A stretch of 64,000 nucleotides of DNA from Candidatus Marinacidobacterales bacterium (GCA_965247365.1 CBDFHB010000001.1:408739-472738), one strand, 5' to 3'. Positions 2-47,227 are shown, numbered from the stretch's first letter. Numbers and translations are program-made. The notes: generated from the sequence alone by a model not told the origin.

Positions 2-661
2 GGCCTGTTCGTTCACGGTCTCGGTCTTGCCCTCATCGCCCTCACCGCTCTATACGCCCCCATCGAGGAAACGCTACCTCATGTGGCGGCCGTCGCGCTC
101 GATCTGGCAGCGCCACCTCCACCCCCGCTTCGGCAGGGTAGCCCGGCGGGTGTCGAGAGCGCGACGCTCCTAGCGAGACCCGTGGCGGCGGCAACGGTAC
201 CCCACGTCGTTGTGCCGGGCCTATCCGCCGAGATTCTCTCCATGCGTTTCGAGCTCGGGGCAGGTGTCGAGCATGGGTTTCCGGGGGGTGACGACGACGG
301 AATGCAAGGTGGGATCCCGGGGGGGGTGGTCGGCGGCGTCCCCGGCGGCCTGGTCGGAGGCTCCATCGGCGGCACGGGAACGGCAGTCACCCCAGACGTG
401 GGTCCGCGCCCGATCCGCATGCCACAGCCGAGCTACACCCGGGAAGCGATTCGCGACAACGTTTCAGGGGTCGTCATGCTTCGCGTCGTGATCGATAAGC
501 AGGGCAAGGTGAAAGTACTCGAGGTCTTGCGCTCGATTCCGGCACTCGATGCCGAGGCCATTCGGGTCGTGGAGTCTGAGTGGCGGTTCCACCCCGCCAC
601 GAGACAAGGGCGCCCAGTCCCCGCTCTCAGCAACCTCATCGTCCGCTTCAATCTCTATTGA
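2..661 (+). CDS. tonB: TonB family energy transducer, 5'-truncated by the window edge. The frame is open from nt 2 and encodes a TM helix (GLFVHGLGLALIALTALYA) before the first start codon in the track (GTG at 83).
   Basis: Pro-rich segment, Gly-rich GGxxGG repeats and a TonB C-terminal domain (PQPSYTREAIRDNVSGVVMLRVVIDKQGKV...LIVRFNLY). There is no stop codon between nt 2 and 82 in frame, and the ORF-track protein lacks a TM helix unless extended upstream. Confidence 0.8.
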   Translation, partial: GLFVHGLGLALIALTALYAPIEETLPHVAAVALDLAAPPPPPLRQGSPAGVESATLLARPVAAATVPHVVVPGLSAEILSMRFELGAGVEHGFPGGDDDGMQGGIPGGVVGGVPGGLVGGSIGGTGTAVTPDVGPRPIRMPQPSYTREAIRDNVSGVVMLRVVIDKQGKVKVLEVLRSIPALDAEAIRVVESEWRFHPATRQGRPVPALSNLIVRFNLY

Positions 662-958
662 TGCGACGCGTGCTTGACACGGAGAGCGAGCACGTTTACC
701 ATGGCCCGCTCGAAAGGGGGTCTCAGACCACTCTGAGCTTGGTTTGACAAGGGGATACGTTACCAGATAGATATGCCCTTTTCCTGGATAAGGTATCTTG
801 TTCGCTGAGATCTGGACGGAACTTTTCCGGGTTCATGGTGTCTAAGAGTTTGACCAAGGTGAGTCCTCCCTCACGAGCCATCTTGGTCAGAGAACTATAG
901 CGGATAGTGCGATCTTCATAGTCAGAGTCGTTCGTACTTCTCCGGAAAGGAGCACGCC

Positions 959-1663
959 GTGCCCAAGGAACTGTTTGATCAAGCGCTGACATCCGGGGGG
1001 AATCCGACCGGCTCGTTGGGGAGTTTCTTGACATCCGTTCTAATCCAGTGTGGGATTCTCTTCGGCATGGTCATCGTTCCCCTCATGGCCACGGATAATC
1101 TCCCGACGCCGGAAGGCATCATGACCTTCATGGCGCCTCCGCCGCCTCCGCCGCCTCCGCCTCCTCCGCCGCCGCCGCCAAAGGCGGTGAGAGCCAAGCC
1201 GATGGCGCCGAGGCCGGTGGTAGCGGCCAACCAGTTCGTGGCACCCGTCGAGATTCCCGACAATATCGGTGAAGGCTTCGTGGACTTTGGGGGCGTCGAG
1301 GGCGGCGTGCCAGGCGGCGTCATCGGCGGCATCGTCGGCGGTCTTCCCGACGCCCCGCCGCCACCGCCCAGGGCAGAGCCGGTGCGCGTGGGCGGCAACA
1401 TCCGTCCTCCCAACAGGATCAAAGACCTGAGTCCGATCTACCCAGAGATCGCCAAACAGGCGCGCGTCCAAGGCATCGTGATCCTCGAAGCGATCATCGA
1501 TCCCTCGGGCAATGTCACCAACGTGCGTGTGCTGAGGTCGATCCCTTTGCTCGACCAGGCCGCCGTCGAGGCCGTGAAGCAGTGGAAGTACGAGCCGACT
1601 CTACTGAACAACGTTCCCGTTCCGATCGTGATGACGGTGACGGTGACCTTCTCGCTCAACTAG
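959..1663 (+). CDS. tonB: TonB family protein, second paralog, with an N-terminal TM helix, 15 consecutive Pro, a Gly-rich repeat and a TonB C-terminal domain.
   Basis: GTG start at 959 preceded by AAGGAG (947-952). TM helix SFLTSVLIQCGILFGMVIVPLMA, P15 run, C-terminal IYPEIAKQARVQGIVILEAIIDPSGNVTNVRVLRS...VTFSLN. Confidence 0.85.
   Translation: MPKELFDQALTSGGNPTGSLGSFLTSVLIQCGILFGMVIVPLMATDNLPTPEGIMTFMAPPPPPPPPPPPPPPPKAVRAKPMAPRPVVAANQFVAPVEIPDNIGEGFVDFGGVEGGVPGGVIGGIVGGLPDAPPPPPRAEPVRVGGNIRPPNRIKDLSPIYPEIAKQARVQGIVILEAIIDPSGNVTNVRVLRSIPLLDQAAVEAVKQWKYEPTLLNNVPVPIVMTVTVTFSLN
1136..1180 (+). repeat. Coding microsatellite: 15 consecutive proline codons (CCT/CCG/CCA) inside tonB2.
   Basis: Direct read, cct ccg ccg cct ccg ccg cct ccg cct cct ccg ccg ccg ccg cca. 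The antisense frames give poly-Gly/poly-Arg artefact ORFs. Confidence 0.9.
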
Positions 1664-1731
1664 ATTTCGTAAGATATTAGGGTTTTCATCGAGTCAGTGG
1701 CACCCAGCCCAAGGGCTATCAGGAGGAAATA

Positions 1732-2409
1732 ATGTCGTTTAGTTTGCTGGATATTTGGAATCACATGGGATTCACCTCGAAGTTCGTCAACCTTATAATG
1801 CTGGTCATGTCGATCTATTCGCTGAGCGTCATGATCGAGCGGTACATGACGTTCTTCAAAGCGAAGAAGCAGTCGCGTTTCTATGCTCCGAAGGTCGCTA
1901 AGCTCCTGAAGGACGGCAAGATTCAGGATGCCATCAGAATCAGCAGCAACAAGGACGTCAAGAACAGCCACTTGGCCAAGGTTCTTCTCGCCGGACTCCA
2001 GGAGTATCAATTCCAGAAGGAGAGCGGCGAGGGGTCCCGCGACGACATGATGGAGTCGGCCCACCGCGCCATCGAGCGGGCCACCGCCCTGAACCTCACC
2101 GATCTCAGGCGCGGCCTTTCCGGGCTGGGGACCGTGGGTGCCACGGCTCCTTTCGTGGGTCTTTTCGGTACCGTTGCCGGCATCATCAACGCGTTCCGTG
2201 GAATGGCACTCACCGGATCCGGTGGGATCGGTGCCGTATCCGCAGGTATCGCCGAGGCGCTTATCGCGACGGCTGTTGGTCTAGGCGTGGCCATTCCCGC
2301 GGTCTGGGCCTTCAACTACCTGACAACGCGCGTCGAGGGCTTTACGGTCGAGATGGACAATAGCGCCTCGGAGCTCATCGACTACATGGCGAAGAAGACG
2401 GTCAACTAA
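1732..2409 (+). CDS. exbB: MotA/TolQ/ExbB proton-channel protein.
   Basis: Three-TM topology and the conserved C-terminal region GTVGATAPFVGLFGTVAGIINAF, which is typical of ExbB/TolQ. Confidence 0.9.
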   Translation: MSFSLLDIWNHMGFTSKFVNLIMLVMSIYSLSVMIERYMTFFKAKKQSRFYAPKVAKLLKDGKIQDAIRISSNKDVKNSHLAKVLLAGLQEYQFQKESGEGSRDDMMESAHRAIERATALNLTDLRRGLSGLGTVGATAPFVGLFGTVAGIINAFRGMALTGSGGIGAVSAGIAEALIATAVGLGVAIPAVWAFNYLTTRVEGFTVEMDNSASELIDYMAKKTVN

Positions 2410-2443
2410 GGCTGACTTTTTCGAGCAGTAAGGAGAACGAACG

Positions 2444-2860
2444 ATGGGAATGAGCGGACTCGGTCAAAAAACCGTAATTGCCACCATCAATGTGACGCCC
2501 CTGGCTGACGTCATGCTCGTGTTGCTCATCATCTTCATGGTGATCACGCCAATGCTTCAGAAGGGTGTCGACGTGAATCTTCCGGCGGCGGAGTATCCCA
2601 CAGATCATGCGGACAACGAGGACGTCGTCACCGTGGCCGTAAAACTCGACAACACCTTGTATGTCAACATGATTCCGGTGGCGCAGTCCGAGATCGTGGC
2701 TCGCCTCACCGAGGAGTTCGAGGACAAGTCCGAAAAAATCCTCTTTCTCAAAGCGGACGAGGGCTTGGCCTATGGTGACGTCCTGCGGGTCATGGATCTC
2801 TGCCGCGACGCCGGGGCCGACGAGATCGGCCTCATCACGGAGGAAAAGACTCAAGGCTAG
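2444..2860 (+). CDS. exbD: ExbD/TolR biopolymer transport protein.
   Basis: INVTPLADVMLVLLIIFMV TM segment plus a periplasmic domain. An RBS precedes the start. Confidence 0.9.
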   Translation: MGMSGLGQKTVIATINVTPLADVMLVLLIIFMVITPMLQKGVDVNLPAAEYPTDHADNEDVVTVAVKLDNTLYVNMIPVAQSEIVARLTEEFEDKSEKILFLKADEGLAYGDVLRVMDLCRDAGADEIGLITEEKTQG

Positions 2861-2888
2861 GCCTTGGAGCTTCTCGGAGGAAAAGAAT

Positions 2889-3293
2889 ATGGGAATGTCA
2901 GGATCAGTTCGCGGCCGCGGCATGTCGGATATCAACGTGACGCCTCTTATCGACGTCATGTTGGTGCTGCTAATCATTTTCATGGTGGTCACGCCGCTGA
3001 CACAAAAGGGCCTGGACGTCGAGCTGCCTGAGTCGGCAGACAATACCGTGGAATCGGCGCCGGACCCCCACCAGCTGGTCCTCCATATAGACGAAACGGG
3101 TGAAATCACCATCAACAAGCAGCCCGTCAACATTGACGAGCTTCCCCTACGCATCCGTGACCTCTTCGAGACGCGTGCGGACAAAACCATCTTTCTGCAA
3201 GCAGCGCCGACGCTGAGATATGGACAAGTGGTCGAGGTTCTGGACGTCGCTCGAGGCAATGGTGTCGAGCGCGTCGGGATCGTGCCAGGCTAG
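2889..3293 (+). CDS. exbD: ExbD/TolR biopolymer transport protein, second tandem copy. The true start is probably the ATG at 2889, not the track start at 2772.
   Basis: INVTPLIDVMLVLLIIFMVVTP. Both copies begin MGMSG, which suggests a tandem duplication. Confidence 0.85.
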   Translation: MGMSGSVRGRGMSDINVTPLIDVMLVLLIIFMVVTPLTQKGLDVELPESADNTVESAPDPHQLVLHIDETGEITINKQPVNIDELPLRIRDLFETRADKTIFLQAAPTLRYGQVVEVLDVARGNGVERVGIVPG

Positions 3294-3324
3294 CAGCCTG
3301 GCGGCAAGGGTCTACGTTTTTGTC

Positions 3325-4635
3325 TTATACCTCTCCCCGATGGGGAGAGGTCGGTTCGCGAGGCGAACCGGGTGAGGGGTCAGCCGTTTCCTTCAAAGTC
3401 ACCTCGAAGACGGTTCCACCCCCTTCACGAGCGAGACACCGCACGTCCCCTCCATGCAGCCGGGCTATGCGACGCACGAGCGAGAGACCCAAACCCAAAC
3501 CCCGAGCGGACGCAAGAGACGCCGTGGACGCGCGGTAGAAGGGCTCGAAGACGAGCTGCCGTTCCGATTCCGGGATGCCGGGACCGCGATCCCTAATTCG
3601 TATCGAAGCGCCCCCTGGGGGCATCGGAGCGATCTCGACCTCGACGGGGCTTGAAGCTCCGTAGCGACGCGCGTTCTCGAGGAGGTTCCTAACCAGGCGC
3701 CGCACTAGCCGCGGCTCGACTCGAAGCTCCGTGGGCGTCCCGGTGGCCTCGGCGTCATAGCGCGCGGCCTCTTCGGCGGCAAGAATGAGAAGGTCCACCG
3801 TTTCCCCGCTTCCGGCGAGCTCCGTCGTATCGAGCCTGGACGCCAGCAGCAGCTCCTCGATGAGCGCGTCGAGCTCCGCGACGTCGCTCTCGATGCTCTT
3901 CTTGAGCTCTGGGCGGACGGTGTCCGGGAGAAGCTCCGCGGCGACGCGGATACGCGTGAGCGGCGTACGAAATTCGTGCGATGCCCCTGCCAGCAGAGTT
4001 TTCTGAGCCTCGACGAGACGCTCGATTTTGGCTGCGGCACGATTGAAGCTCTCCGCCAGAAAGGCCACCTCGTCACGTCCCTCCACCTCGACCCGAGCGT
4101 CGAGCTCACCCGAGCCGAGGGCGTCGACGCGGTCCCTGAGCCGCTCCAAACGTCTAGTGAGGCGTCGCACGAGAGGAGGATACGCGCCGACAGCAATGGC
4201 ACCGCCCAAGGCCCCAAGGAACAAGAGCATCCCTCCCGCGGTGCGACCTCGTCGATGGCGGACCACGACCCAGCGGCCGTCCGTGAGGGTCAGGGCGGCG
4301 GTGATCCCTGCCCCCCTCGAGTGGAGCCAGTGACTTTCCGCCGCGGTGTCTCGGGGGCCCGGCAAGTCTTCGCCGGATGCGGCAAGGAGTCGCCGTTCCG
4401 GATCGGAGACCGCGAGGCTCAACCCGAGACGTCGAGAAAGAGAGTCGACGGCTCGTTCGAGCTCTTCCGGCATGCGGTCGGCCGGGGGCAGGAGCTCTTC
4501 GGCGACCACGCCCATCGCTTCGAGTGGCTGATCGTTGTAGCCGCCGAGAGTGAGCCACGCGACCGACATGAGAACCGCGAACAAGAGCAGGATACTCAGG
4601 AAAGCGGCGTATATCTGAATATAGAGAGCTCTCAC
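3325..4635 (-). CDS. Sensor histidine kinase with N-terminal TM, HAMP, HisKA and HATPase domains.
   Basis: H-box region FLAESFNRAAAK...SHEFRTPLTRI, HATPase motif LLENARRYG...IRDRGPGIPESE...GLGLSL. It overlaps the regulator gene by 4 nt. Confidence 0.9.
   Translation of the reverse strand: MRALYIQIYAAFLSILLLFAVLMSVAWLTLGGYNDQPLEAMGVVAEELLPPADRMPEELERAVDSLSRRLGLSLAVSDPERRLLAASGEDLPGPRDTAAESHWLHSRGAGITAALTLTDGRWVVVRHRRGRTAGGMLLFLGALGGAIAVGAYPPLVRRLTRRLERLRDRVDALGSGELDARVEVEGRDEVAFLAESFNRAAAKIERLVEAQKTLLAGASHEFRTPLTRIRVAAELLPDTVRPELKKSIESDVAELDALIEELLLASRLDTTELAGSGETVDLLILAAEEAARYDAEATGTPTELRVEPRLVRRLVRNLLENARRYGASSPVEVEIAPMPPGGASIRIRDRGPGIPESERQLVFEPFYRASTASLASARGLGLGLSLVRRIARLHGGDVRCLAREGGGTVFEVTLKETADPSPGSPREPTSPHRGEV
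3330..3369. terminator. Two adjacent GC-rich hairpins at the convergent junction of exbD2 and the histidine kinase, a candidate bidirectional terminator. They overlap the 3' tail of the kinase ORF.
   Basis: CCTCTCCCC-gat-GGGGAGAGG (3330-3350) and GGTTCGC-gag-GCGAACC (3353-3369), both perfect stems. There is no clean U-tract. Confidence 0.3.
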
Positions 4636-15527: not shown

Positions 15528-16937
15528 TCATACCAAATCAAGGAGGCGTTCAAAGAAAGGATGTGCGCTAAAACTGGTGCTTTTGGATGGTTCATAGGCT
15601 CTCAGGACGACGCCCCTTCTGGCCGGCCACCACCGGTCTCTTCCGGGGAACACCGTAGCGAGCAATCTTGTAATGCAGTGCACGCGGGCTGATTCCGAGA
15701 ATCCGAGCCGCTTTCTGGCGGTGGTCCGTGACCTCTTCCAGCGTGCGGCGGCGCCTGCGGTCGCAATCTCGGGGGGGAGATGCTGGGGTCGGATCGTCGA
15801 CTCCTCGATGGTGACGGTAAGTCGCTCGATGACGTTTCGGAGCTCGCGGACGTTCCCCGGCCAGTCGTAGTGTGCGAGAAGCTCCACCGCATCTCGAGAG
15901 ATCCGTTTGACGGCCTTGCGATTCGCAAGAGCGAACTCGTTCAGGAACCCACTAACGAGAAGCGGAATGTCCTCGCGGCGCTCTCGCAAGGACGGAAGGT
16001 GGATAGGAACGACCGCGAGCCGGTAGTAGAGATCCTGACGAAAACGTCCCTCCTCCACCTCGGTCAGCAGATCCTTGTTCGTCGCCGCGATGATACGCAC
16101 GTCGACGCGGATGATCTTCTCCCCCCCCAGCCTGCGAAACTCGCGCTCCTGTAGAACCCTCAGAAACTCGACCTGGGTCTTTCTGCTCATCTCGCCCACT
16201 TCGTCGAGAAACAAGGTGCCGCTGTCCGCCATCTCGATCCTGCCCTCTTTGGAATCGACGGCTCCCGTGAAGGCGCCCCGTTCGAATCCAAACAGCTCGC
16301 TCTCCAGGAGGCCCTCGGGTAGAGCGCCGCAGTTGATCGAAACGAAGGGCCGCGCTCGACGACCGCTTCGTTGGTGGATCGCTTTGGCGACGAGCTCCTT
16401 GCCGGTACCACTCTCGCCGGTCAGAAGCGTGGTCGCGGAGGTATTCGCCACCTGCTCGGCCACTTCGTAAACTTCGGTGATGCGTCGGCTCTTTCCCACG
16501 ATCTTGGCGTATTCGTCCTTCAGTGAGAGTCGTTCTCGCAGCGAGCGGTTCTCCTCGGAGAGGCGTCTCCGCTCGAGAGCCTTTTGGGCCAGGACCGGTA
16601 GGCGCGTCGGATCGAGGGGCTTGACGAGATAGTCGTAAGCGCCTTGTCGCATGGCCAAGACCGCCGTCGTCACCGACCCCTCACCGGACTGCGTGAGGAT
16701 GATCTCCGTCTCCGGCGCCACTTTCTTGAGCCGAAAGAGCTGGCTCGCCCAATCAGCCTCGAGAAGCTCGATGCTAACGATGGCCAATCCGTAGCGAGAC
16801 AGGTCCTCCTCTTGAAGCCGACCCCCGCCCGCCGCCGTCAAGCCGCGATCGGCGAGCCACGTCGAGATTTCCCTTCGCTCCGAGGGGACGGCATCGAGCA
16901 CGAGCACGCGCTCCGATCGTTCCAAAGTTTCAGCCAT
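15528..16937 (-). CDS. Sigma-54-dependent transcriptional activator (NtrC family) with an apparent frameshift at a G7/C7 homopolymer. The authentic Fis-type HTH C-terminus is in another frame and ends at 15592.
   Basis: AAA+ motifs TGESGTGKELVAKAIH...GAFTGA and ESELFGFERGAFTGA. After ...RPQHLPPEI the called frame degenerates, while the alternative frame reads LEEVTDHRQKAARILGISPRALHYKIARYG, a classic HTH_8. The N-terminal receiver-like domain lacks the phospho-acceptor Asp. Confidence 0.85.
   Translation of the reverse strand: MAETLERSERVLVLDAVPSERREISTWLADRGLTAAGGGRLQEEDLSRYGLAIVSIELLEADWASQLFRLKKVAPETEIILTQSGEGSVTTAVLAMRQGAYDYLVKPLDPTRLPVLAQKALERRRLSEENRSLRERLSLKDEYAKIVGKSRRITEVYEVAEQVANTSATTLLTGESGTGKELVAKAIHQRSGRRARPFVSINCGALPEGLLESELFGFERGAFTGAVDSKEGRIEMADSGTLFLDEVGEMSRKTQVEFLRVLQEREFRRLGGEKIIRVDVRIIAATNKDLLTEVEEGRFRQDLYYRLAVVPIHLPSLRERREDIPLLVSGFLNEFALANRKAVKRISRDAVELLAHYDWPGNVRELRNVIERLTVTIEESTIRPQHLPPEIATAGAAARWKRSRTTARKRLGFSESARVHCITRLLATVFPGRDRWWPARRGVVLRAYEPSKSTSFSAHPFFERLLDLV
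15771..15777. other. G7 homopolymer at the frameshift site of the sigma-54 activator.
   Basis: ctc ggggggg aga. A length change of one nucleotide (+1 or -2) restores one continuous REC-AAA-HTH reading frame. Confidence 0.7.
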
Positions 16938-17331
16938 CTATTCCGATCCAGGCCAGAGGTACTCATACTGCAAGAGATGTGCCACAAATCGAAGCTCGAT
17001 GAAGGGCCTTAGAATCAAGAGTTTGGAACGGTACTTCTAAGAGATGATCGCCGGGCCACATAATACTGCATATTTTGCTCACTTCTTGTGGCAGTGCTCG
17101 CCAACTTACGAGCCAGAGTCTCGAGAGCCCAAGAATTAAATTCCTCTAAACCTATTCAATCAATACACTTGTCAACCAGGACGGATGCTTTGCGGATGCA
17201 ATCCCTCGTAGTGCACATTGTGCGCAAACGTCTCCGTGCCCGCTCCCAATATGACACAGGCAGAGGACATTGACACGTCGAAATCCTCCATCTACACTGC
17301 GAACGAAACTCGTTTTGGGGAGGAGGCCTCG

Positions 17332-38505: not shown

Positions 38506-39144
38506 TTGAAGCTCATTATCTTCGATTTGGACGGGACGCTCGTCGACTCCGGGTTGGACATCGCCCTGTCCGTGAACGAGCTCTTGGAGGTCATGGAGCG
38601 CGAAACCTTGCCGCTTCCCCGTGTCGTGGGCTTCATCGGCGACGGCGTGCGGAAGCTTCTCGATCGTTCGCTGGGGGGCGTGAGCGACGACGAGCTCGAT
38701 CGGGCCCATGCGCTCTACCTCCCCATTTACCGACGACGGCTCCTCGAGCATACGAGGGCCTACCCCGGCGTACGCGAGACGCTATCCGCGCTCGCGGCGC
38801 AGCGAGTGCTCGCCGTGCTGACCAACAAGCCCATCCGCGAAAGCCGACTTCTTCTCAAGGGACTCGGCCTCGATCGTTTCTTTCGTGCCGTCTACGGAGG
38901 AGACTCGTTCAAGGCTCGGAAACCCGATCCGGTCGGCGCACTCGAGCTCATGCGAGAGCTGGACGCGGAAGCCGGAGAAACGTTGTTCGTCGGTGACTCG
39001 GCGGTGGACTTCGAGACGGCGCGCCGCGCCTCGGTTCGCTTCTGCCTCGTCACCTACGGCATTGGCACCACCGAAACCCTGAAATCGGAGCCAGATTTCC
39101 GGCTGGATAACTTGCGGGAGCTGCTATCCATCGTCCATGCTTAG
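38506..39144 (+). CDS. HAD-IA hydrolase (phosphoglycolate phosphatase-like).
   Basis: MKLIIFDLDGTLVDS motif I, VLTNKP, GDS..D. Confidence 0.8.
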   Translation: MKLIIFDLDGTLVDSGLDIALSVNELLEVMERETLPLPRVVGFIGDGVRKLLDRSLGGVSDDELDRAHALYLPIYRRRLLEHTRAYPGVRETLSALAAQRVLAVLTNKPIRESRLLLKGLGLDRFFRAVYGGDSFKARKPDPVGALELMRELDAEAGETLFVGDSAVDFETARRASVRFCLVTYGIGTTETLKSEPDFRLDNLRELLSIVHA

Positions 39145-39147
39145 AGT

Positions 39148-39819
39148 ATGAGCCTCGTGCCCATCTTTCCGCTCCCGGAGACGGTATTTTTTCCGACAGA
39201 GCTTCTGCCTCTCCATCTCTTCGAGCCCCGATATCGGCAGATGGCGGAGGATGCGATTAGAGGAGACAGACGGCTCGTCGTCGTCCTGCTGCGACCGGGC
39301 TGGGAGCAGGATTACTACGGCAACCCTCCGGTGCACGAGATAGCTACACTCGGTCACATCGACGAGGACGAGAAGCTCCCGGATGGCGGCTTCAACATCA
39401 CTCTCAGAGGTCTAGAGCGAGTCCGGCTCGTCGATCCCGAGAGCGCATCCACTGATGAGCGGGTCGAAGGCAAGCTCTATCGCGCGCGAGACACCTGCGC
39501 ACTACCGGAGGTCCTTCCACCGACCGAGGTGAACGTCCACCCCATGGCTTTTCGGCTTCGCGAGCTCGAATCCGAGCTCGCGGCAACGACCGGCAGGAAG
39601 ACGGCCGAACGCCGCGAGGCCGCCGACTTTCGTGGGCTCGTCAATACCATGGCCGCAACCAGTGACATCCCCGCCACGATGAAGCAAGGCCTCCTCGAAG
39701 AGGGCAATCTCCTGAAGCGCGCCTCGAAACTCGAATCCCTCCTCCTCGAGAATCTGAAATTCTGGCGTTTGCTCGCCCATTATCGCGAAAGCTCCCCAGA
39801 AGACCCCACGGTCAATTGA
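39148..39819 (+). CDS. Stand-alone Lon N-terminal (LON substrate-binding) domain protein.
   Basis: LPIFPLPETVFFPTELLPLHLFEPRYRQM, typical of a Lon N-domain. There is no AAA or protease domain. Confidence 0.75.
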   Translation: MSLVPIFPLPETVFFPTELLPLHLFEPRYRQMAEDAIRGDRRLVVVLLRPGWEQDYYGNPPVHEIATLGHIDEDEKLPDGGFNITLRGLERVRLVDPESASTDERVEGKLYRARDTCALPEVLPPTEVNVHPMAFRLRELESELAATTGRKTAERREAADFRGLVNTMAATSDIPATMKQGLLEEGNLLKRASKLESLLLENLKFWRLLAHYRESSPEDPTVN

Positions 39820-39903: not shown

Positions 39904-41163
39904 GTGGTAGATTCCGTGCCATCAATTCTAATCGTCGACGACGAAGAAACGGTTCGCGCGACCTTCGCCGACGTGCTCGCGGCAGAGGGTCACGAGGTCG
40001 TTACTGCTTCGAGCTTCAGCGAAGCGAGATCCCTACTCCGAGAGCAACGCTTCGATGTCGCCCTGACCGACCTGATGCTGCCGCAGGAGAGCGGACTCTC
40101 GCTGCTGCGTTTCTCATCGGAACAGGATCCCGAAATGAGCGTCGTGATGGTCACGGGGCATCCGGATCTATCTACTGCGGTCGAGGCGCTGAAGGAAGGC
40201 GCCTACGACTACATAGGAAAACCCGTAACCCGACAGGCACTGCTCGCGGTCGTTGAGCGCGCTTGTGAGCGTAAAGCACTGCTTCGAGAGAAGCGACGGC
40301 TGGAAGCGGAGAACGCGGATTATCAACGTTCGTTGGAATTCAAAGTCCGAGAGCGTACCGCTCGCCTCCGTGAGTCAGAGAAACGCTACCGGGAGCAGTT
40401 TCAGGAAACGCGACGCGCCTACGAGGAGCTGAAGCACACCCAGGAGAAGCTCATTCGATCGGAAAGACTCGCAGCCGTGGGTGAGCTCGCAGCGCAGATC
40501 GCACACGAGATCCGGAATCCTCTGGGGGCCATCTCGAACTCCGTCGGTGTGCTCCGCCGCGATTTGGAGCTTCACGGAGACGATCGGCGCCTGCTCGACG
40601 TGGTGCATCAGGAATCACAGCGCCTCGAGAGCATTGTCGCGGATTTCCTCAGGTTCGCTCGCCCTCGTCCCATCCACAAGACTCCCCAGGAGGTAACGGC
40701 TGTCCTCGACGATCTGCTGCTCTTGATCTCGCAAGAGAAAGCCGTCGGACGGCCGATCCGTATCGTCAAGGAATATGAGGACGAGCTTCCGCCCGTGGGC
40801 CTGGATGCCGCGCAATCCCGGGAGGCGCTCTGGAACTTGCTCGTCAATGCCGTCGAAGCCATGCCGTCCGGCGGTGAGCTCCGGGTTATCGTGCAACGCT
40901 CCTCGCCGGGCGACGATTTTGTCGAGGTCGTGGTAAGAGACACCGGTAAGGGCATTGCACCCAGCGAGCGCGAAAAGATCTTTCAACCGTTCCATACGAC
41001 CAAAGCTGACGGCACCGGCCTCGGCCTCGCGATCGTACAACGCGTCGTGGAGGCTCATGCCGGCGAAGTCGAAGTCGAAAGCGAGGAGGGAGCCGGCAGC
41101 GCCTTCCGCCTCAGATTTCCTGTGAGCTCCGATGAGCGCCAACCAATCGAGACCCATCGCTGA
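39904..41163 (+). CDS. Hybrid signalling protein with an N-terminal receiver (REC) domain followed by HisKA-HATPase histidine kinase domains.
   Basis: ILIVDDEETVRATF...DVALTDLMLPQESG...VMVTGHPD; H-box AHEIRNPL; HATPase VRDTGKGIAPSEREKIFQPF...GTGLGLAIV. Confidence 0.85.
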   Translation: MVDSVPSILIVDDEETVRATFADVLAAEGHEVVTASSFSEARSLLREQRFDVALTDLMLPQESGLSLLRFSSEQDPEMSVVMVTGHPDLSTAVEALKEGAYDYIGKPVTRQALLAVVERACERKALLREKRRLEAENADYQRSLEFKVRERTARLRESEKRYREQFQETRRAYEELKHTQEKLIRSERLAAVGELAAQIAHEIRNPLGAISNSVGVLRRDLELHGDDRRLLDVVHQESQRLESIVADFLRFARPRPIHKTPQEVTAVLDDLLLLISQEKAVGRPIRIVKEYEDELPPVGLDAAQSREALWNLLVNAVEAMPSGGELRVIVQRSSPGDDFVEVVVRDTGKGIAPSEREKIFQPFHTTKADGTGLGLAIVQRVVEAHAGEVEVESEEGAGSAFRLRFPVSSDERQPIETHR

Positions 41164-42541
41164 AGAAGAAACGGAGATCGCTCCGGGCGTGTCGGTTCTG
41201 GTCGTCGACGACCAGGCCCCGATCCGGGAGTCGATGGTCATTACCTTCCGACGCGAGGGCTACGACGTTCAGTCCGCGAAGTCCGGCGAAGAGGCGATCG
41301 ATCTCCTCTTCAACCATCCCTTCGACCTGGTCGTGACGGACCTTCGACTCGGCGGAATCAGCGGAATCGAGGTCTTGAAGCGCGCGAAAGAGCTCTTCCC
41401 GGACACAGAGGTCGTCGTCATGACCGCCTATGGGACCATCGAAGGCGCAGTCGAGGCGATCAAGTCGGGGGCCTACGACTATCTGACCAAGCCCTTCCAG
41501 CCGCAAGAGCTCACGCTAGTGGCCCAGCGCGCCCTCGAGCGCAAGGGCTTGACGCAGAGGGTTCGATTGCTCGAGCAAGCGGTGAGGGACCAGGATCCCT
41601 TCGCCGACATCATCTCGGCATCACCAGTGATCGACGAAGTGCTCAAGATGGTCGACCAGGTCGCCCGACTCGACTCGACGGTTCTCATCACGGGTGAGAG
41701 CGGCACCGGCAAGGAACTGGTGGCAAGGGCACTGCACGCTCTTTCTCCACGAAAGGACAAACCTCTCGTCATCGTCAACTGCGGCGCAATTCCCGAGAAT
41801 CTCCAGGAGAGCGAGCTCTTCGGTCATTCGAAGGGCGCCTTTACGGGTGCGCACGCCGACAAGCGAGGTTTGTTCGACGAGGCACATGGTGGCACGGCTT
41901 TTCTGGACGAGGTTGGTGAGCTCACTCCGATGGCGCAGGTGAAGATGTTGCGCTTTCTCCAGGACGGAGAAGTCCGTAGGGTGGGGACGACGGCGAGCCG
42001 CAACCTCGACGTGCGAATCATTGCTGCGACGAATCGAAATCTCCACAAGGAGGTCGAGGGCGGCGCGTTTCGAGAAGACCTGTTCTATCGCCTCAACGTG
42101 ATCCCCATCGAGCTGCCTCCGCTCCGCGACCGACGGGAGGACATTCCCGCCTTGGCTCTGCACTTCATGAGGCGCATCGCTGAACGAATGGACATTCGGA
42201 ATCCACCTCCCATCTCTCCGCGAGCGATGGATCTGCTGCTCAAACAGCCCTGGCGTGGCAACGTCCGAGAGCTGGAGAACATCATGGAGCGGGCGTCAGC
42301 GCTCGATCGAGACGGCATTATCGGTATGGACGATCTCCCTTTCGGCGACTCGCACCGCAACGAAGACCGCATCATCGATCGCGCCCGAACAAGCGCTCTC
42401 ACGCTCGCGGAAATCGAGAAGGAGTACATCCTCGAAGTGCTGGCAGAGTGCGGCGGAAGCCGCAAGAACACTGCGAAACGCCTCGGAATCACGACGGCGA
42501 CGCTGTGGCGCAAGCTCAAGCTCTACGAGAAAGAAAGCTGA
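41132..42541 (+). CDS. Sigma-54-dependent response regulator (REC, AAA+ and Fis-type HTH; NtrC/AtoC family).
   Basis: VLVVDDQAPIRE...DLVVTDLRLGG; ITGESGTGKELVARALH; ESELFGHSKGAFTGA; C-terminal HTH. It overlaps the kinase gene by 32 nt. Confidence 0.9.
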   Translation: MSANQSRPIAEEETEIAPGVSVLVVDDQAPIRESMVITFRREGYDVQSAKSGEEAIDLLFNHPFDLVVTDLRLGGISGIEVLKRAKELFPDTEVVVMTAYGTIEGAVEAIKSGAYDYLTKPFQPQELTLVAQRALERKGLTQRVRLLEQAVRDQDPFADIISASPVIDEVLKMVDQVARLDSTVLITGESGTGKELVARALHALSPRKDKPLVIVNCGAIPENLQESELFGHSKGAFTGAHADKRGLFDEAHGGTAFLDEVGELTPMAQVKMLRFLQDGEVRRVGTTASRNLDVRIIAATNRNLHKEVEGGAFREDLFYRLNVIPIELPPLRDRREDIPALALHFMRRIAERMDIRNPPPISPRAMDLLLKQPWRGNVRELENIMERASALDRDGIIGMDDLPFGDSHRNEDRIIDRARTSALTLAEIEKEYILEVLAECGGSRKNTAKRLGITTATLWRKLKLYEKES

Positions 42542-42597
42542 GCTTCTTTCGGACAGCGGTCGGCGGAAGTTAGTCCTCGGGGATACTCGCGCCGGGA

Positions 42598-44046
42598 TCA
42601 ATCGCGCGGGCCTGCTCGAAGGTTTTGCTCGCCCTTAGATGAAGCCCCGCCTCCCGATAGAGCATCCCGAGCTCGATCAGATAGTCGGATTTCCACGGGT
42701 CCAGATTGGCCGCGATCTTGAGATTCTTCTCCGCGTCCTGGCGCCACTTTGGATTCTTCCTGAGCGCGAGGCCGAGAAAGTGATAGAGCTCGGCTCGATC
42801 CGGCGCCAGATCGATCGCCTGTTGGGTAAGCTGAATGGCCTGCCAAAAGTCTGACCGGTCGTGGGCCTCCCTGTGCGCGCCGGTACAGATCCTTGGCGGC
42901 GCCGAGGTCGCCCCGCTTGGTTGCCTGAGTGTCGTCCTTCGAGGGCTTCGAGGGAATGGAGCTTCGCTGACCCTCCTCGTATTGGGTCTCCTTGTCAGCC
43001 AGCGCTCGATAGCTCTGCGAGCTTTTCTCGGAAGACAAGGTCTCGAAAGCCTCGTTGATTCGACGAAAAACGAAGGAGAGCTTTTCCTGAAACTCGGGGT
43101 CGGTGTTGCGTCTGAAGCGGTCCGGATGAAACCGTTTGGCGCCGCGATGGAACGCCTTTTTGGCCTCCGCCGTGGAGGCTCCTCGCTGGATCTCCAACAC
43201 CTGCCAATGGTCTCGAAACTGAAACTCTTGATACAGCCTTTCCACCTCGGCATGCTCGCGGTCGCGCTCGTCCTCCGCCGAGACGCTCGAAGCGGTCGCT
43301 TGGAGAGCCTTTTGTGCCTTCTCCTCCGGGTCGTCTCCGGTGCCTTCTTCTCCCTCGGGCTCGATGACTCCGGCCGCAAGCAAACCGTGGAGTGTCCGCG
43401 CCGTCTGCTCTTCGGACAGGGGGCTGACGGAGAAGATGTCGTTCGCTGTCTGCGTACCGTCGATCCGTGACAGCACGAAGGCCTCTTCCGGCTTCAGGTT
43501 GACGTCCTGAAATCGCTTCAGCGGATCTTTCGGGAAGCCCAGTTTGGAGTCGTCGTTCCGGAGACGGGCGAGAATCTTATCCACCTTCGGGGTGCGGCGC
43601 GCCGCCTCCATTAGGATGTCGGCAACGGAAAGCGGCGCTTCGACGGAAGCATCGACGCTACTCAGTGGAGAGAAGGCGAGCCGCTTTGGTGGGCTAATGA
43701 GCTGCGTGCAGGTGACGTCGAGAAGCTGCAGCCGGACGAATGCCTCGATCTCCTCGTCACCGATGACGTTCAGCTCAGCGAGAATCTCGCCGAGCCTCCA
43801 GCCGCTCTTGATGAAGTGCGATGCGTCGGCGAACTCCTGCTTGGTGATACGACCGTGCCGCATCATCACTTCGCCGAGACGGTCCTCGTTCCGACTCGAC
43901 TGAGCACCTACGACGAACCCCGAGCGGAAATAGACCGCTCGCTGGGTCGAGCCCGCCTCGCCGGTCAGGACGCCGGTCCGCTTGCCGAAGAAGAGTTTTT
44001 TGAAAGTCTCAGTGACTTGCTGGTTCATAGGGCGACACCCCAGCAA
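42598..44046 (-). CDS. J-domain (DnaJ-like) protein with an N-terminal DUF4388-like domain. Its C-terminus is frameshifted: the authentic TPR-like C-terminus continues in another frame to 42570.
   Basis: J-domain HWQVLEIQRGASTAEAKKAFHRGAKRFHPDR with an HPD motif. The called frame ends in Ser/Gly/Arg low-complexity sequence. The overlapping ORF 42570-43379 gives TPR-like sequence QAIDLAPDRAELYHFLGLAL...LDPWKSDYLIELGMLY. Confidence 0.75.
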   Translation of the reverse strand: MLGCRPMNQQVTETFKKLFFGKRTGVLTGEAGSTQRAVYFRSGFVVGAQSSRNEDRLGEVMMRHGRITKQEFADASHFIKSGWRLGEILAELNVIGDEEIEAFVRLQLLDVTCTQLISPPKRLAFSPLSSVDASVEAPLSVADILMEAARRTPKVDKILARLRNDDSKLGFPKDPLKRFQDVNLKPEEAFVLSRIDGTQTANDIFSVSPLSEEQTARTLHGLLAAGVIEPEGEEGTGDDPEEKAQKALQATASSVSAEDERDREHAEVERLYQEFQFRDHWQVLEIQRGASTAEAKKAFHRGAKRFHPDRFRRNTDPEFQEKLSFVFRRINEAFETLSSEKSSQSYRALADKETQYEEGQRSSIPSKPSKDDTQATKRGDLGAAKDLYRRAQGGPRPVRLLAGHSAYPTGDRSGAGSSRALSLSRPRAQEESKVAPGRGEESQDRGQSGPVEIRLSDRARDALSGGGASSKGEQNLRAGPRD

Positions 44047-44420
44047 GGTCCTCTAGGGAGCGAAGCTCCGGTCCGTATATTGTCAATCAGGGTTTGCTAA
44101 GTGAGATTCTATCAAATCGGGCGCGAAAATGGTCGAAGCGCATGACGCTCGCACCTATGCGGGGAGCGCCCAGGGGCTCGAATCCCAAGGTGTCTGATAG
44201 CGAAGGACACGAGCCCGCGAGGCCGAAACATTTCAACATTAAATGCGGCGCCCCCAATTATGGATTTCGATATTAAACGTTCGCGCTTCCAGGGCCGAGG
44301 TGGAAAATACATAAACGGCCCACAAGCAATAGCTTACGAATATTACCTGCAAGTGGCACGGGCCTTGCTTTTGGTGTTGTCCGAGAACGCATTGGCGTCG
44401 CTCCCCAATCTCGGCGCCAA

Positions 44421-44466
44421 CCCCGGGAGGTGCCCCCCGCACCGCCTCCCGGGGTTAATTTTTTTT
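44421..44466 (+). terminator. Rho-independent terminator oriented for the plus strand: a perfect 10-bp GC stem and then a T-rich tail.
   Basis: CCCCGGGAGG-(14 nt)-CCTCCCGGGG ttaatttttttt. It abuts the clpB stop (44465-44467), but it is an A-tract followed by the hairpin as seen from the minus strand. Confidence 0.5.
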
Positions 44467-47080
44467 AGCTGGCCGCCGCGAAGACTGGGTCCCCGCTTTG
44501 AAACGTCAAGGCGGAATCCTCCACGCCGACGACCAATCTCTTGCCCTCTTGAATCTCGCCCGCGAGAAGCCGCCGTGCAACTTCGCTCTCGAGCGCTTTC
44601 TGGATCGTTCGCTTGATGGGTCTCGCTCCATAGACCGGGTCGTAGCCCGCATCCGCGATGAACGCCTTGGCTTCGTCGGTAACCTCGAGCTCGATCCGCC
44701 GGGAAGCCAGCCGCGCTGCAAGCCTCCGAAGCTGAAAGTCTACGATTGCGACAATCTGGTTCTTGTCCAACGAATGGAACACGACGACCTCGTCGACACG
44801 GTTGAGAAACTCGGGCCGAAAATGATGTCTCATCAATTCGAGCACTTGCTGGCTCATGGCTTCGTAGTCTTCGGACCCCGCTCCGCCTTGGAACGCCAGA
44901 ATCTCGGAGCTTCCGATGTTGGACGTCATGATGAGCACCGTATTCCGAAAGTCGATGGTCCGCCCGTGGGAGTCCGTCAGCCGTCCCTCGTCCAGGATTT
45001 GAAGCAATAGGTTGAAGACGTCGGGATGAGCCTTCTCGATCTCGTCGAATAGCACGACGGAGAACGGCCGACGCCGCACCGTCTCGGTGAGCTGACCGCC
45101 CTCTTCGTAACCGACGTAGCCCGGAGGCGCGCCGATGAGACGCGCGACGGCGTGCTTCTCCATGTACTCGCTCATGTCGATCCGCACGAGCGCCTTCTCG
45201 TCGTTGAAAAGATACTCCGCGAGTGTGCGCGCGAGCTCGGTCTTGCCGACGCCGGTCGGACCGAGAAAGATGAAGCTTCCGATGGGTCGGTCCGGATCTT
45301 GGATGCCGGCGCGAGCCCTGACGACTGCGTCCGCGACTGCGTCCACGGCCTCGTCCTGGCCCACGACCCTGTCGTGCAGGTGCTCTCCGAGGTGGAGTAG
45401 CTTCTCGACTTCGCCTCCGAGAAGCTTCGACAGGGGAATTCCGGTCCACCGCGCGACTACTTGAGCAATATCTTCGTCGTCGACTTCCTCTTTCAGCAAC
45501 ATGCTCTTCTTCTCGGCAAGCTCCTGTTCGGATTTTTCGAGCTTCTTGGTGAGCTCGTTCAGGCGCCCGTAGCGCAGCTCGGCCACCTTATCGAGCTCGT
45601 AGGTCCTTTCCCTCTTCTCGATCTCCTGTTTGGTGGACTCGATCTCTTCGCGTAGTTTGCGGACGGAAGAGAGGAGTTCTTTTTCCTCCTTCCATTGCGC
45701 CCGGACTACGTCGGCGAGCCCCTGATGGTCGACGAGCTGACGCTCGATCTCCTTCAAACGCTCCTTCGAAGCTCTGTCCTTTTCCTTCTTCAGCGCCTGG
45801 CGCTCGATCTCGAGCTGCATGAGACGGCGATCCACTTCATCGAGCTCGGTGGGAACGCTGTCGATCTCGGTGCGCAGTCGGGCCGCGGCCTCGTCCACGA
45901 GATCGATGGCCTTGTCGGGCATGAAACGATCGGAAATGTAGCGATTGGACAAGGTGGCCGCGGCCACGAGGGCGGCATCCTTGATACGAACCCCGTGGTG
46001 CACCTCGTAACGCTCGTTGAGGCCGCGAAGAATGGAAATCGTATCCTCCACGGAAGGCTCAGAGACGAGGATGGTCTGAAATCTGCGTTCTAGAGCGGCG
46101 TCCTTTTCGATGTATTTTCGGTATTCGTCGAGCGTCGTGGCTCCGATACAGTGGAGCTCGCCTCGTGCCAGCATCGGTTTGAGGAGGTTGCCGGCGTCCA
46201 TCGCGCCTTCGACTTTCCCGGCCCCAACGACGTTGTGGAGCTCGTCGATGAAGAGAACGACCCGACCCTCGGATTCCTGAACTGCTTTCAAGACGGCCTT
46301 CAGCCGCTCCTCGAACTCGCCACGATATTTAGCCCCCGCGATGAGCGCTCCCATATCGAGCGTCACGACGCGCTTGTCTTTGAGACCCTCGGGGACGTCG
46401 CCGCGAACGATGCGCTGTGCGAGCCCCTCCGCGATCGCCGTCTTTCCGACTCCAGGCTCACCGATGAGAACGGGGTTGTTCTTCGTTCGGCGGGAGAGAA
46501 TCTGGATCACACGACGGATCTCGTCGTCTCGGCCGATGACCGGATCGAGCTTGCCCTGAGTGGCGAGTTCCGTGAGATCTCGACCGTATTGGGTAAGCGG
46601 CTCGTAGGTCGCCTCGGGGTTCGGAGACGTAACCCGTTGGGAGCCGCGGACGTCTTTCAACACGCCGAGCACCGCCTCACGCGTGATGCCTCGGTCCTTC
46701 AGAAGCCTTCCGGAGAAACCCGAGTCGTCGGCAAGGGCGAGAAGAAAGTGCTCCACGCTGACGAAATCATCCTTGAGCTTGCCCGCGTCCTGGTCGGCCG
46801 CGTCCAGGAGTCGGCGCAACTGCTGCGAGAAGTACATCGGGCCCGCGCCCGGTCCCTGTACTGAGGGCAGGCGCTCGAGCTCCGTCTGGACGCGTGAGCC
46901 CAGTTCGCCCGCATCAGCGGCCAGCCGAGACAACACCTTGTTCGTCACGCCCTCGCCCTGCGACAGCAGGGCCAGGAAAAGGTGCTCAACATCCATCTGC
47001 TGATGTCCGTGACGCGTGGCTATGGCTTGAGCCTCACCCACGGCCGCCTGTGACTTTTCCGTCAGTCGATTGAAATCCAT
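44465..47080 (-). CDS. clpB: ClpB disaggregase (Hsp104/ClpB AAA+ chaperone).
   Basis: Clp_N repeats, two AAA+ modules ([15 protein letters not shown]; [12 protein letters not shown]), and the coiled-coil M-domain. Confidence 0.95.
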
Positions 47081-47163
47081 TCGAATCCTCCCTGTGACAG
47101 AGAAATCTTATAATAGTACAATCATAATATCAATATATATGTGTATTATAAACTAATATTATA

Positions 47164-47192
47164 TTGACTTTTATGAGTGTATATCTTATACT
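47164..47192 (+). promoter_or_regulatory. Candidate sigma-70 promoter for dnaK (TTGACT-N17-TATACT) in the AT-rich divergent clpB/dnaK region, overlapped by an imperfect inverted repeat.
   Basis: -35 at 47164-47169 and -10 at 47187-47192. The inverted repeat GAGTGTATA-tct-TATACTCTC lies at 47175-47195. RBS GGAGG lies 9 nt before the ATG at 47228. Confidence 0.4.
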
Positions 47193-47227
47193 CTCCTCTA
47201 AGAGCTTTGATGGAGGAGCAAGAGACT

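Follow-up and report, generated by a model that had tools for sequence, protein, structure and literature searches.

Why should an intrinsic terminator on the plus strand stand between two genes that are both read from the minus strand? We address this question for a 64-kb stretch of a metagenome-assembled genome of a Candidatus Marinacidobacterales bacterium (GCA_965247365.1, CBDFHB010000001.1:408739-472738; class Vicinamibacteria, phylum Acidobacteriota); the whole of this stretch, with positions counted from its first nucleotide, is referred to as the window. An earlier reading of the window, which we call the original prediction, placed such a terminator between clpB and a gene encoding a J-domain protein, and proposed that an unannotated plus-strand small RNA (sRNA) or leader occupies positions 44047-44466. 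Comparative evidence favours the sRNA over the leader and gives it a much shorter extent. We consider it likely that the window carries a stand-alone sRNA gene at about 44380-44466 (+), which would be transcribed by sigma-54 RNA polymerase with the help of a bacterial enhancer-binding protein (bEBP) and would act in trans by base-pairing. That a sigma-54-driven RNA gene exists here is, from the sequence, highly probable; for base-pairing as its mode of action, taken separately, we put the chances at slightly under even.

A terminator hairpin on the plus strand

On the plus strand, the hairpin arms CCCCGGGAGG (44421-44430) and CCTCCCGGGG (44445-44454) can be read directly from the sequence, with TGCCCCCCGCACCG between them, and the U-tract TTAATTTTTTTT (44455-44466, +) follows immediately. 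The original prediction had described a perfect 10-bp stem with a 14-nt loop. The arms are as described, but folding adds a U.G and a G-C pair, such that the stem grows to 12 bp (44421-44432 with 44443-44454) and the loop shrinks to the 10 nt CCCCCCGCAC (44433-44442). A 12-bp GC-rich stem with a U-tract constitutes an intrinsic (Rho-independent) terminator, and the plus-strand terminator of the original prediction is borne out by sequence, by folding and by its uniqueness in the window: no other hairpin on either strand combines an uninterrupted stem of 10 bp or more with 8 or more T's among the 12 nt that follow, and 100 first-order Markov simulations gave a count of 0. Our built-in terminator scan did not report this hairpin because it accepts only loops of 3-8 nt.

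The setting of the terminator was also described correctly. Both flanking genes lie on the minus strand, and the clpB stop codon abuts the terminator; indeed, the TAA is the complement of 44465-44467 and shares the last two T's of the tract. Read from the minus strand, an A-run precedes the hairpin and only UUGG follows it, so that it does not have the form of an intrinsic terminator for clpB.

A conserved predicted RNA in related loci

Our collection of related loci was anchored on the J-domain protein, and comprised a locus from a near-identical genome (L001), 80 metagenome loci and a dozen loci reached through individual homologues. About 20 related Vicinamibacteria loci, from soil and marine sources, share the promoter described below, the RNA body and a T-rich tail, all in the same orientation; the tail follows either the terminator hairpin described above (hairpin 2) or a third hairpin, on the RNA strand. 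In type-A loci (L001, L003-L015, L083/84, L087, L090 and L095), the motif TGGCAC-N5-TTGCW lies on the strand opposite the J-domain gene, and is followed by a variable 10-15 nt and then by the near-invariant GAGAACGCA-UUGGCGUCGCUCCCCAAUCUCGACGCCAG-CCCCGGGAGGUGCCCCCCGCACCGCCUCCCGGGG. Type B consists of L018 (same species as L093) and L092, and has in addition a 5' hairpin of ~65 nt, a separate downstream terminator and, after the RNA, a bEBP gene whose product has no REC domain. This activator has AAA+ and HTH_8 domains only, and is encoded in the same direction as the RNA at 3506-4486 (-) in L093 and 2-967 (-) in L092.

A covariance model, R1, built from 16 copies scores the window at 111 bits, type-A copies at 98-116 bits and type-B copies at 85-87 bits; no unrelated match, in the window or in ~0.6 Mb of locus sequence, reaches 24 bits, and the window holds one copy. 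No copy was found in viral contigs. The 72-nt core of the RNA is 94-97% identical to that of the window. For the flanking coding DNA, identity is 76-77% for the activator gene, 66-71% for the J-domain gene, 74-75% for clpB and 76-81% for dnaK; blastn does not align the remainder of the spacer. The stems are near-invariant, like the loops, across loci in which the J-domain proteins share ~50-60% and the DnaK proteins ~78% identity. Loci with an orthologue of the J-domain gene at L016, L017, L019-L021, L023, L085, L088, L089, L091 and L094 have no RNA, sigma-54 promoter or upstream boxes.

The gene beyond the 3' end of the RNA differs from locus to locus. It is a convergent clpB in the window, L003, L006, L015, L087 and L095, a co-directional dnaK in L007-L010, L012, L013 and L090, and another gene elsewhere; because this neighbour varies, the element is not clpB's own. 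Moreover, in L001 an insertion of ~3 kb (574-3575) lies exactly within the A/T run that separates the clpB stop codon from the hairpin, and the RNA gene beside it is intact. This insertion encodes an IS1595 transposase, a D12 N6-adenine methyltransferase, a PD-(D/E)XK nuclease and transposase-like fragments, and is bordered on either side by an AAAAT-like duplication.

Five distinct loci (L004, L011, L014, L083 and L087) have, in place of the U-tract after hairpin 2, a third hairpin with a U-run, e.g. GGGGGACAGGC...GCCUGUCCCCC-UUUUU, and the sequence of hairpin 2 is unchanged in all of them. Hairpin 2, which the original prediction had treated as a terminator alone, is therefore a conserved element of the RNA body, and in the window it serves as the terminator as well.

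A putative sigma-54 promoter with upstream boxes

A putative sigma-54 promoter, TGGCACGGGCCTTGCT, lies at 44354-44369 (+), 52 nt 5' of the terminator hairpin, with the GG at 44355-44356 as the -24 element and the GC at 44367-44368 as the -12 element. The start of the RNA is predicted at ~44380 because we take C44368 as position -12. The promoter has at most one mismatch in type-A loci, and reads TGGTAYGTASTTTGCT in type B. Hairpin 1, the first of two predicted RNA hairpins, begins 24-27 nt after the -12 element in every type-A locus; conservation sets in at predicted positions +1 to +5, whereas the promoter spacer and the first transcribed bases vary freely. A scan of 43000-45500 for sigma-70 promoters found no sites.

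When the region between the RNA promoter and the J-domain gene is aligned across loci, the sole conserved blocks besides the promoter are two imperfect dyads, which we consider candidate activator sites: a distal box, ATTTCAACATTAAAT, at 44230-44244 (+), centred at about -143, and a proximal box, ATTTCGATATTAAAC, at 44264-44278 (+), centred at about -109. In nearly all RNA-positive loci the distal box takes the form ATTTCA-N3-TTAAAT at -141 ± 2, and the proximal box, ~34 bp from the distal one, takes the form ATTTCA-N3/4-TTGAAT at -107 ± 2. The box motif has no further site in the window. As far as sequence can tell, this is the classical enhancer arrangement for an activator of the NtrC family.

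A fitting activator is encoded nearby. The gene at 41132-42541 (+) encodes an NtrC-type enhancer-binding protein with a REC domain, a sigma-54 AAA+ domain containing the GAFTGA motif and a Fis-type helix-turn-helix domain (HTH_8), as judged from Pfam matches and the translation. It overlaps by 32 nt with, and is in the same operon as, the gene at 39904-41163 (+) for a cytoplasmic histidine kinase of REC-HisKA-HATPase architecture (Pfam). The locus combines exact -24/-12 spacing, two boxes that fall within the ~80-150 bp usual for upstream activator sites and a linked bEBP with GAFTGA, and we infer that the linked activator binds the two boxes. The activator gene is convergent to the J-domain gene in every RNA-positive locus with enough flanking sequence, and its product is conserved at 73-85% amino-acid identity, against 48-65% for the J-domain protein. 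The kinase gene is likewise found with the RNA wherever an RNA-positive locus extends far enough, and it is absent from the RNA-negative loci L016, L021, L023, L085, L088, L091 and L094.

There are two exact matches to TGGCAC-N5-TTGCW in the window, including the promoter of the RNA. The second, TGGCACATCTCTTGCA at 16969-16984 (-), lies ~30 nt 5' of the gene at 15528-16937 (-), whose product is a sigma-54 activator with an AAA+ domain and a weak REC match. This position suggests that the bEBP gene at 15528-16937 depends on sigma-54 and may regulate its own transcription.

Predicted structure of the RNA

The predicted RNA of ~87 nt (44380-44466, +) would start within 2 nt on either side of the position set by the promoter and end in the U-tract. 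Its 5' segment, UCCGAGAACGCA (44380-44391, +), is unpaired in the consensus fold and includes the block GAGAACGC, which is almost invariant among type-A loci. Hairpin 1 (44392-44420, +) combines a 9-bp stem, UUGGCGUCG/CGGCGCCAA, with an 11-nt loop, CUCCCCAAUCU (44401-44411). Its pairs are kept in all 20 sequences, with a U.G pair of the window appearing as U-A in other copies, and the loop is invariant save for one U>C change in type B. Hairpin 2 (44421-44454, +), with its 12-bp GC stem and 10-nt loop, completes the RNA. The two-hairpin fold is both the minimum-energy and the centroid structure, with a z-score of -3.9 in the window and -3.9 to -5.4 overall, and RNAalifold and single-sequence folds agree on it. 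A pseudoknot between the 5' GAGA and the UCUC of loop 1 is possible, in a region without covariation.

All 420 of the 420 stem cells in the 20 distinct copies form standard pairs. Six pair types vary with pairing kept, namely U-A/U.G, G-C/G.U, A-U/G.U and U.G/C-G, together with one double change; this last is a G-C to A-U replacement in hairpin 2 between types A and B, which is found alongside three wobble-compatible changes. Support for the fold is from thermodynamics and from the absence of disruptive changes, and not from strong covariation.

The interval from 44047 to 44466, which the original prediction had assigned to the transcript as a whole, does not behave as one RNA. We rejected the 421-nt interval as a single structured RNA (z = -1.96), and nothing in it is conserved outside the 87-nt RNA and the boxes. 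The sequence 5' of the RNA is instead taken up by the candidate activator-binding boxes, the promoter and, next to the divergent J-domain gene, the region that would control that gene; 44047-44353 belongs to this part. A scan for tRNA and tmRNA genes found none. With a predicted promoter and terminator of its own, and with no sign of coding, the RNA gene appears to be an independent transcription unit.

Proposed function and alternative explanations

We propose the following scheme. The kinase would phosphorylate the adjacent activator, as the linkage of their genes suggests; the activator would then bind both boxes and drive transcription by sigma-54 RNA polymerase from the promoter at 44354-44369; and transcription would run from ~44380 and stop at hairpin 2 and its U-tract. 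The resulting RNA would expose three segments, the 5' tail with GAGAACGC, loop 1 with CUCCCCAAUCU and loop 2 with CCCCCCGCAC, and would most likely work in trans. The mode of action that we favour is pairing of the C-rich loops, and perhaps of the 5' GAGAACGC too, with G-rich ribosome-binding regions of mRNAs, as in other sRNAs with C-rich loops. The neighbouring genes, encoding ClpB, DnaK, the J-domain protein and a protein with a Lon N-terminal domain, point to a role in protein quality control.

Several observations weigh against this scheme or parts of it. We looked for targets by folding each of the three accessible segments as a duplex with the start regions of 49 open reading frames (ORFs) of the window, and inspected by eye the start regions of dnaK, clpB, the bEBP gene, the histidine kinase gene and the LonN gene across loci. 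These scans of window ORFs and conserved neighbours returned only generic matches of the G-rich or Shine-Dalgarno type, with no convincing conserved partner. Near-invariance of the stems also fits a simple seed-pairing sRNA poorly, since stems usually drift in such RNAs. A two-sided change is found in one pair only, and 16 of 500 column shuffles match the observed covariation score; the covariation is weak because the sequence hardly varies. The co-occurrence of the kinase gene with the RNA is suggestive but not phylogenetically independent, and may reflect shared ancestry. Lastly, the start, the end and the expression of the RNA are inferred from sequence rather than from transcripts.

One candidate target was set aside: a G-rich site 5' of the start of the bEBP gene, which falls within the coding sequence of the kinase and can be put down to the protein motif encoded there.

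Of the alternatives, the one that survives best, although we consider it unlikely, accepts the sigma-54-driven RNA and differs in how the RNA acts. It would bind protein or form a ribonucleoprotein, sequestering a regulator or contacting a chaperone or the J-domain protein. Stems and loops that are near-invariant although the DnaK, ClpB and J-domain proteins are 50-80% identical are typical of an RNA that is contacted along its whole length, and the scans of window ORFs and conserved neighbours gave no convincing mRNA partner. Nonetheless, the RNA lacks repeated GGA-type or other known protein-binding motifs, the locus offers no candidate partner with an RNA-binding domain, and base-pairing through C-rich loops is a recurrent strategy (PMC6486639).

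It is quite improbable that the RNA is a cis-acting leader or attenuator, with regulated read-through into a downstream gene on the same strand. Such a role would suit the seven loci in which a co-directional dnaK begins ~240-700 nt downstream (L007-L010, L012, L013 and L090), and also L092 and L093, in which the REC-less bEBP gene comes next. It would not suit the window, L003, L006, L015, L087 or L095, in which the convergent clpB leaves no gene to read into; in addition, the terminator is strong, with 12 GC-rich bp and U7-8, and dnaK has upstream elements of its own.

Marginally less probable still is that the RNA serves, in this genome, as a cis-antisense partner of the 3' end of the clpB mRNA. 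The convergent, overlapping geometry is present here and in five other loci, and given the poor terminator signature on the minus strand, a clpB transcript that reads through would be fully complementary to the RNA. However, antisense overlap cannot explain the conservation of the RNA, because most RNA-positive loci carry the same RNA sequence without that geometry.

We regard it as very improbable that the hairpin is merely the terminator of the convergent clpB, or a bidirectional one, with no functional RNA on the plus strand. The clpB stop codon does abut the hairpin here and is within ~15 nt of it in L003, L006, L015, L087 and L095, and hairpin terminators without a U-tract have been proposed in GC-rich bacteria. 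Yet the same invariant sequence stands beside dnaK or other genes in most loci, and in L001 clpB is 3 kb away from it; every U-tract belongs to the RNA strand, with UUGG alone on the minus strand; and a conserved sigma-54 promoter and boxes lie upstream at a fixed distance. In addition to its place in the RNA, the hairpin may also end clpB transcription in the six loci with the convergent geometry, which would not account for its conservation in the others. Finally, a small protein, read in the frame of ORF 44260-44616 or as a short TTG-initiated peptide, can practically be dismissed: the ORF noted in the original prediction does exist and spans the region in the window, but it is not a conserved frame, as 1-nt indels between or before the hairpins (L006, L004, L008, L011, L013 and L095) break any common frame, no start or stop codon is conserved and the three codon positions are equally invariant.

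Neighbouring genes

The gene at 42570-44028 (-) encodes a PATAN(DUF4388)-J-domain-TPR protein, as identified by Pfam and by homologues, and is the syntenic anchor of the RNA gene, which is divergent from it and lies 230-350 nt upstream in most loci. Its start, placed at about 44046 in the original prediction, is more likely the ATG at 44028, which begins the sequence MNQQ that is conserved in homologues. An extra G in a G-run near 42871 (CAGGGAGG here, CAGGAGG in L001) shifts the frame after residue ~386, and the conserved C-terminal TPR part of the protein is found in the overlapping ORF 42570-43379; the frameshift is either an assembly error or the mark of a pseudogene. On the other side, clpB (44465-47080, -; Pfam) is convergent with the RNA gene and outside its transcription unit.

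Upstream of the kinase-activator operon are genes for a stand-alone protein with a Lon substrate-binding (LonN) domain, at 39148-39819 (+), and for a HAD hydrolase, at 38506-39144 (+); both recur in related loci. The region upstream of dnaK in the window (47081-47227) is very AT-rich and contains a promoter-like site, TTGACT-N17-TATACT. The dnaK leaders in L003, L006-L009, L012 and L090 contain TGGCRCC-N11-GGYGCCA followed by AAAYTATTG, ~45 nt before the ATG; this inverted repeat of the relatives matches neither CIRCE nor HAIR.

Implications

To our knowledge, RNA regulators have hardly been described in Acidobacteriota, a phylum that ranks among the most abundant in soil. At a minimum, the element described here would add a new RNA family to Rfam and to genome annotation, with a covariance model ready for use. 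The conservation of the RNA can be likened to that of a tRNA, in that a stretch of 72 nt hardly changes, even in its stems, throughout the class. The RNA is by far the most conserved part of the locus, and its association with dnaK, clpB and the J-domain gene is constant. This suggests an important function, possibly linked to stress or to proteostasis. The locus also presents a complete module that can be tested, from the kinase through the NtrC-type activator, the two boxes and the sigma-54 promoter to the 87-nt RNA.

A more far-reaching possibility, which we think improbable, is that the RNA differs from ordinary seed-pairing sRNAs: it would be the sole output of a dedicated phosphorelay and sigma-54 activator pair that lies within a cluster of chaperone genes, and would act as a structured partner of the proteostasis machinery (e.g. 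the PATAN-J protein, DnaK or ClpB) or of another conserved machine. If so, it would represent a new functional class, a chaperone-linked regulatory RNA in Acidobacteriota.

Comparison with known regulatory RNAs

A search of the whole window, and of representatives of both RNA types, against Rfam 15 at gathering thresholds found no family that reaches threshold, Qrr (RF00378) included; the interval suggested for such a scan in the original prediction was also searched at E <= 10, with the same outcome. Below threshold, the RNA is matched best by ErsA, which scores 18.7 bits where 50 are required, and by ctRNA_pGA1, with 21.2 of the 45 bits required. We discounted the ErsA, ctRNA_pGA1 and tfoR matches (14-21 bits), all of which depend on the terminator hairpin alone. 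The covariance model of 6C (RF01066) gave no match. F6/SfdS (RF01791) matches hairpin 2 of type B, at 4578-4624 (-) in L093, with 30.9 bits, short of the 46 set as its gathering threshold, and has no match to the window copy at E <= 10. Full-text literature searches brought up no work on sRNAs of Vicinamibacteria or on sRNAs of Acidobacteria that depend on sigma-54. Judged by sequence and genomic setting, we therefore regard the RNA as a new family of a known regulatory kind.

Two known RNAs resemble it in parts of their structure. Like our RNA, 6C of Actinobacteria is small, highly conserved and GC-rich, with C-rich hairpin loops, through which it binds several mRNAs (PMC6486639). It belongs to a different phylum and has a different type of promoter, and in our RNA a run of six C's is found in loop 2, with only four in a row in loop 1. 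For the proposed mode of action, sRNAs with C-rich loops such as 6C are nonetheless the nearest analogues. F6/SfdS of mycobacteria depends on an alternative sigma factor and has a hairpin closed by a GC clamp (AGCCCCG...CGGGGC) around a GACCCCCG-type loop, and it is reported to affect the chaperonins GroEL2 and GroES (PMC8557902). However, the sigma factor on which F6 depends is SigF and not sigma-54, and the likeness covers one hairpin only. The shared GC clamp and ACCCCCG loop more likely reflect convergence.

Other likenesses are found in how the RNA would be controlled. GlmY (with GlrK/GlrR), CrcZ/CrcY (with CbrA/CbrB) and NrsZ (with NtrB/NtrC) have in common with the present locus a two-component system with an NtrC-type activator that has an sRNA as its main output. 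GlmY, CrcZ/CrcY and NrsZ act largely by protein sequestration or mimicry through repeated motifs. These motifs are not present in our RNA, the sequences are unrelated, and the known examples are proteobacterial only. The CbrAB system has been reviewed (PMC8871633).

The Qrr sRNAs of Vibrio are transcribed with sigma-54 and LuxO, a regulator that is fed by a phosphorelay. LuxO is an NtrC-type response regulator (PMC4878744). Qrr RNAs differ from the RNA described here in having four stem-loops rather than two hairpins with C-rich loops, and there is no likeness in sequence or covariance model; ours, moreover, is from Acidobacteriota and has one copy per locus. Nonetheless, both are short RNAs (Qrr ~90-110 nt) with an intrinsic terminator, a sigma-54 promoter and upstream dyad sites for an NtrC-family regulator. 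Both also have a long invariant sequence block and a gene beside the regulator locus, and the activator seems to be dedicated to the sRNA promoter. By analogy, the regulatory logic of the locus is closest to that of the sRNAs controlled by sigma-54 and NtrC-type activators (Qrr/LuxO, GlmY/GlrR and CrcZ/CbrB), and the sequence evidence suggests that two-component systems with an sRNA as their output, the design known from Qrr, GlmY and CrcZ, exist outside Proteobacteria.

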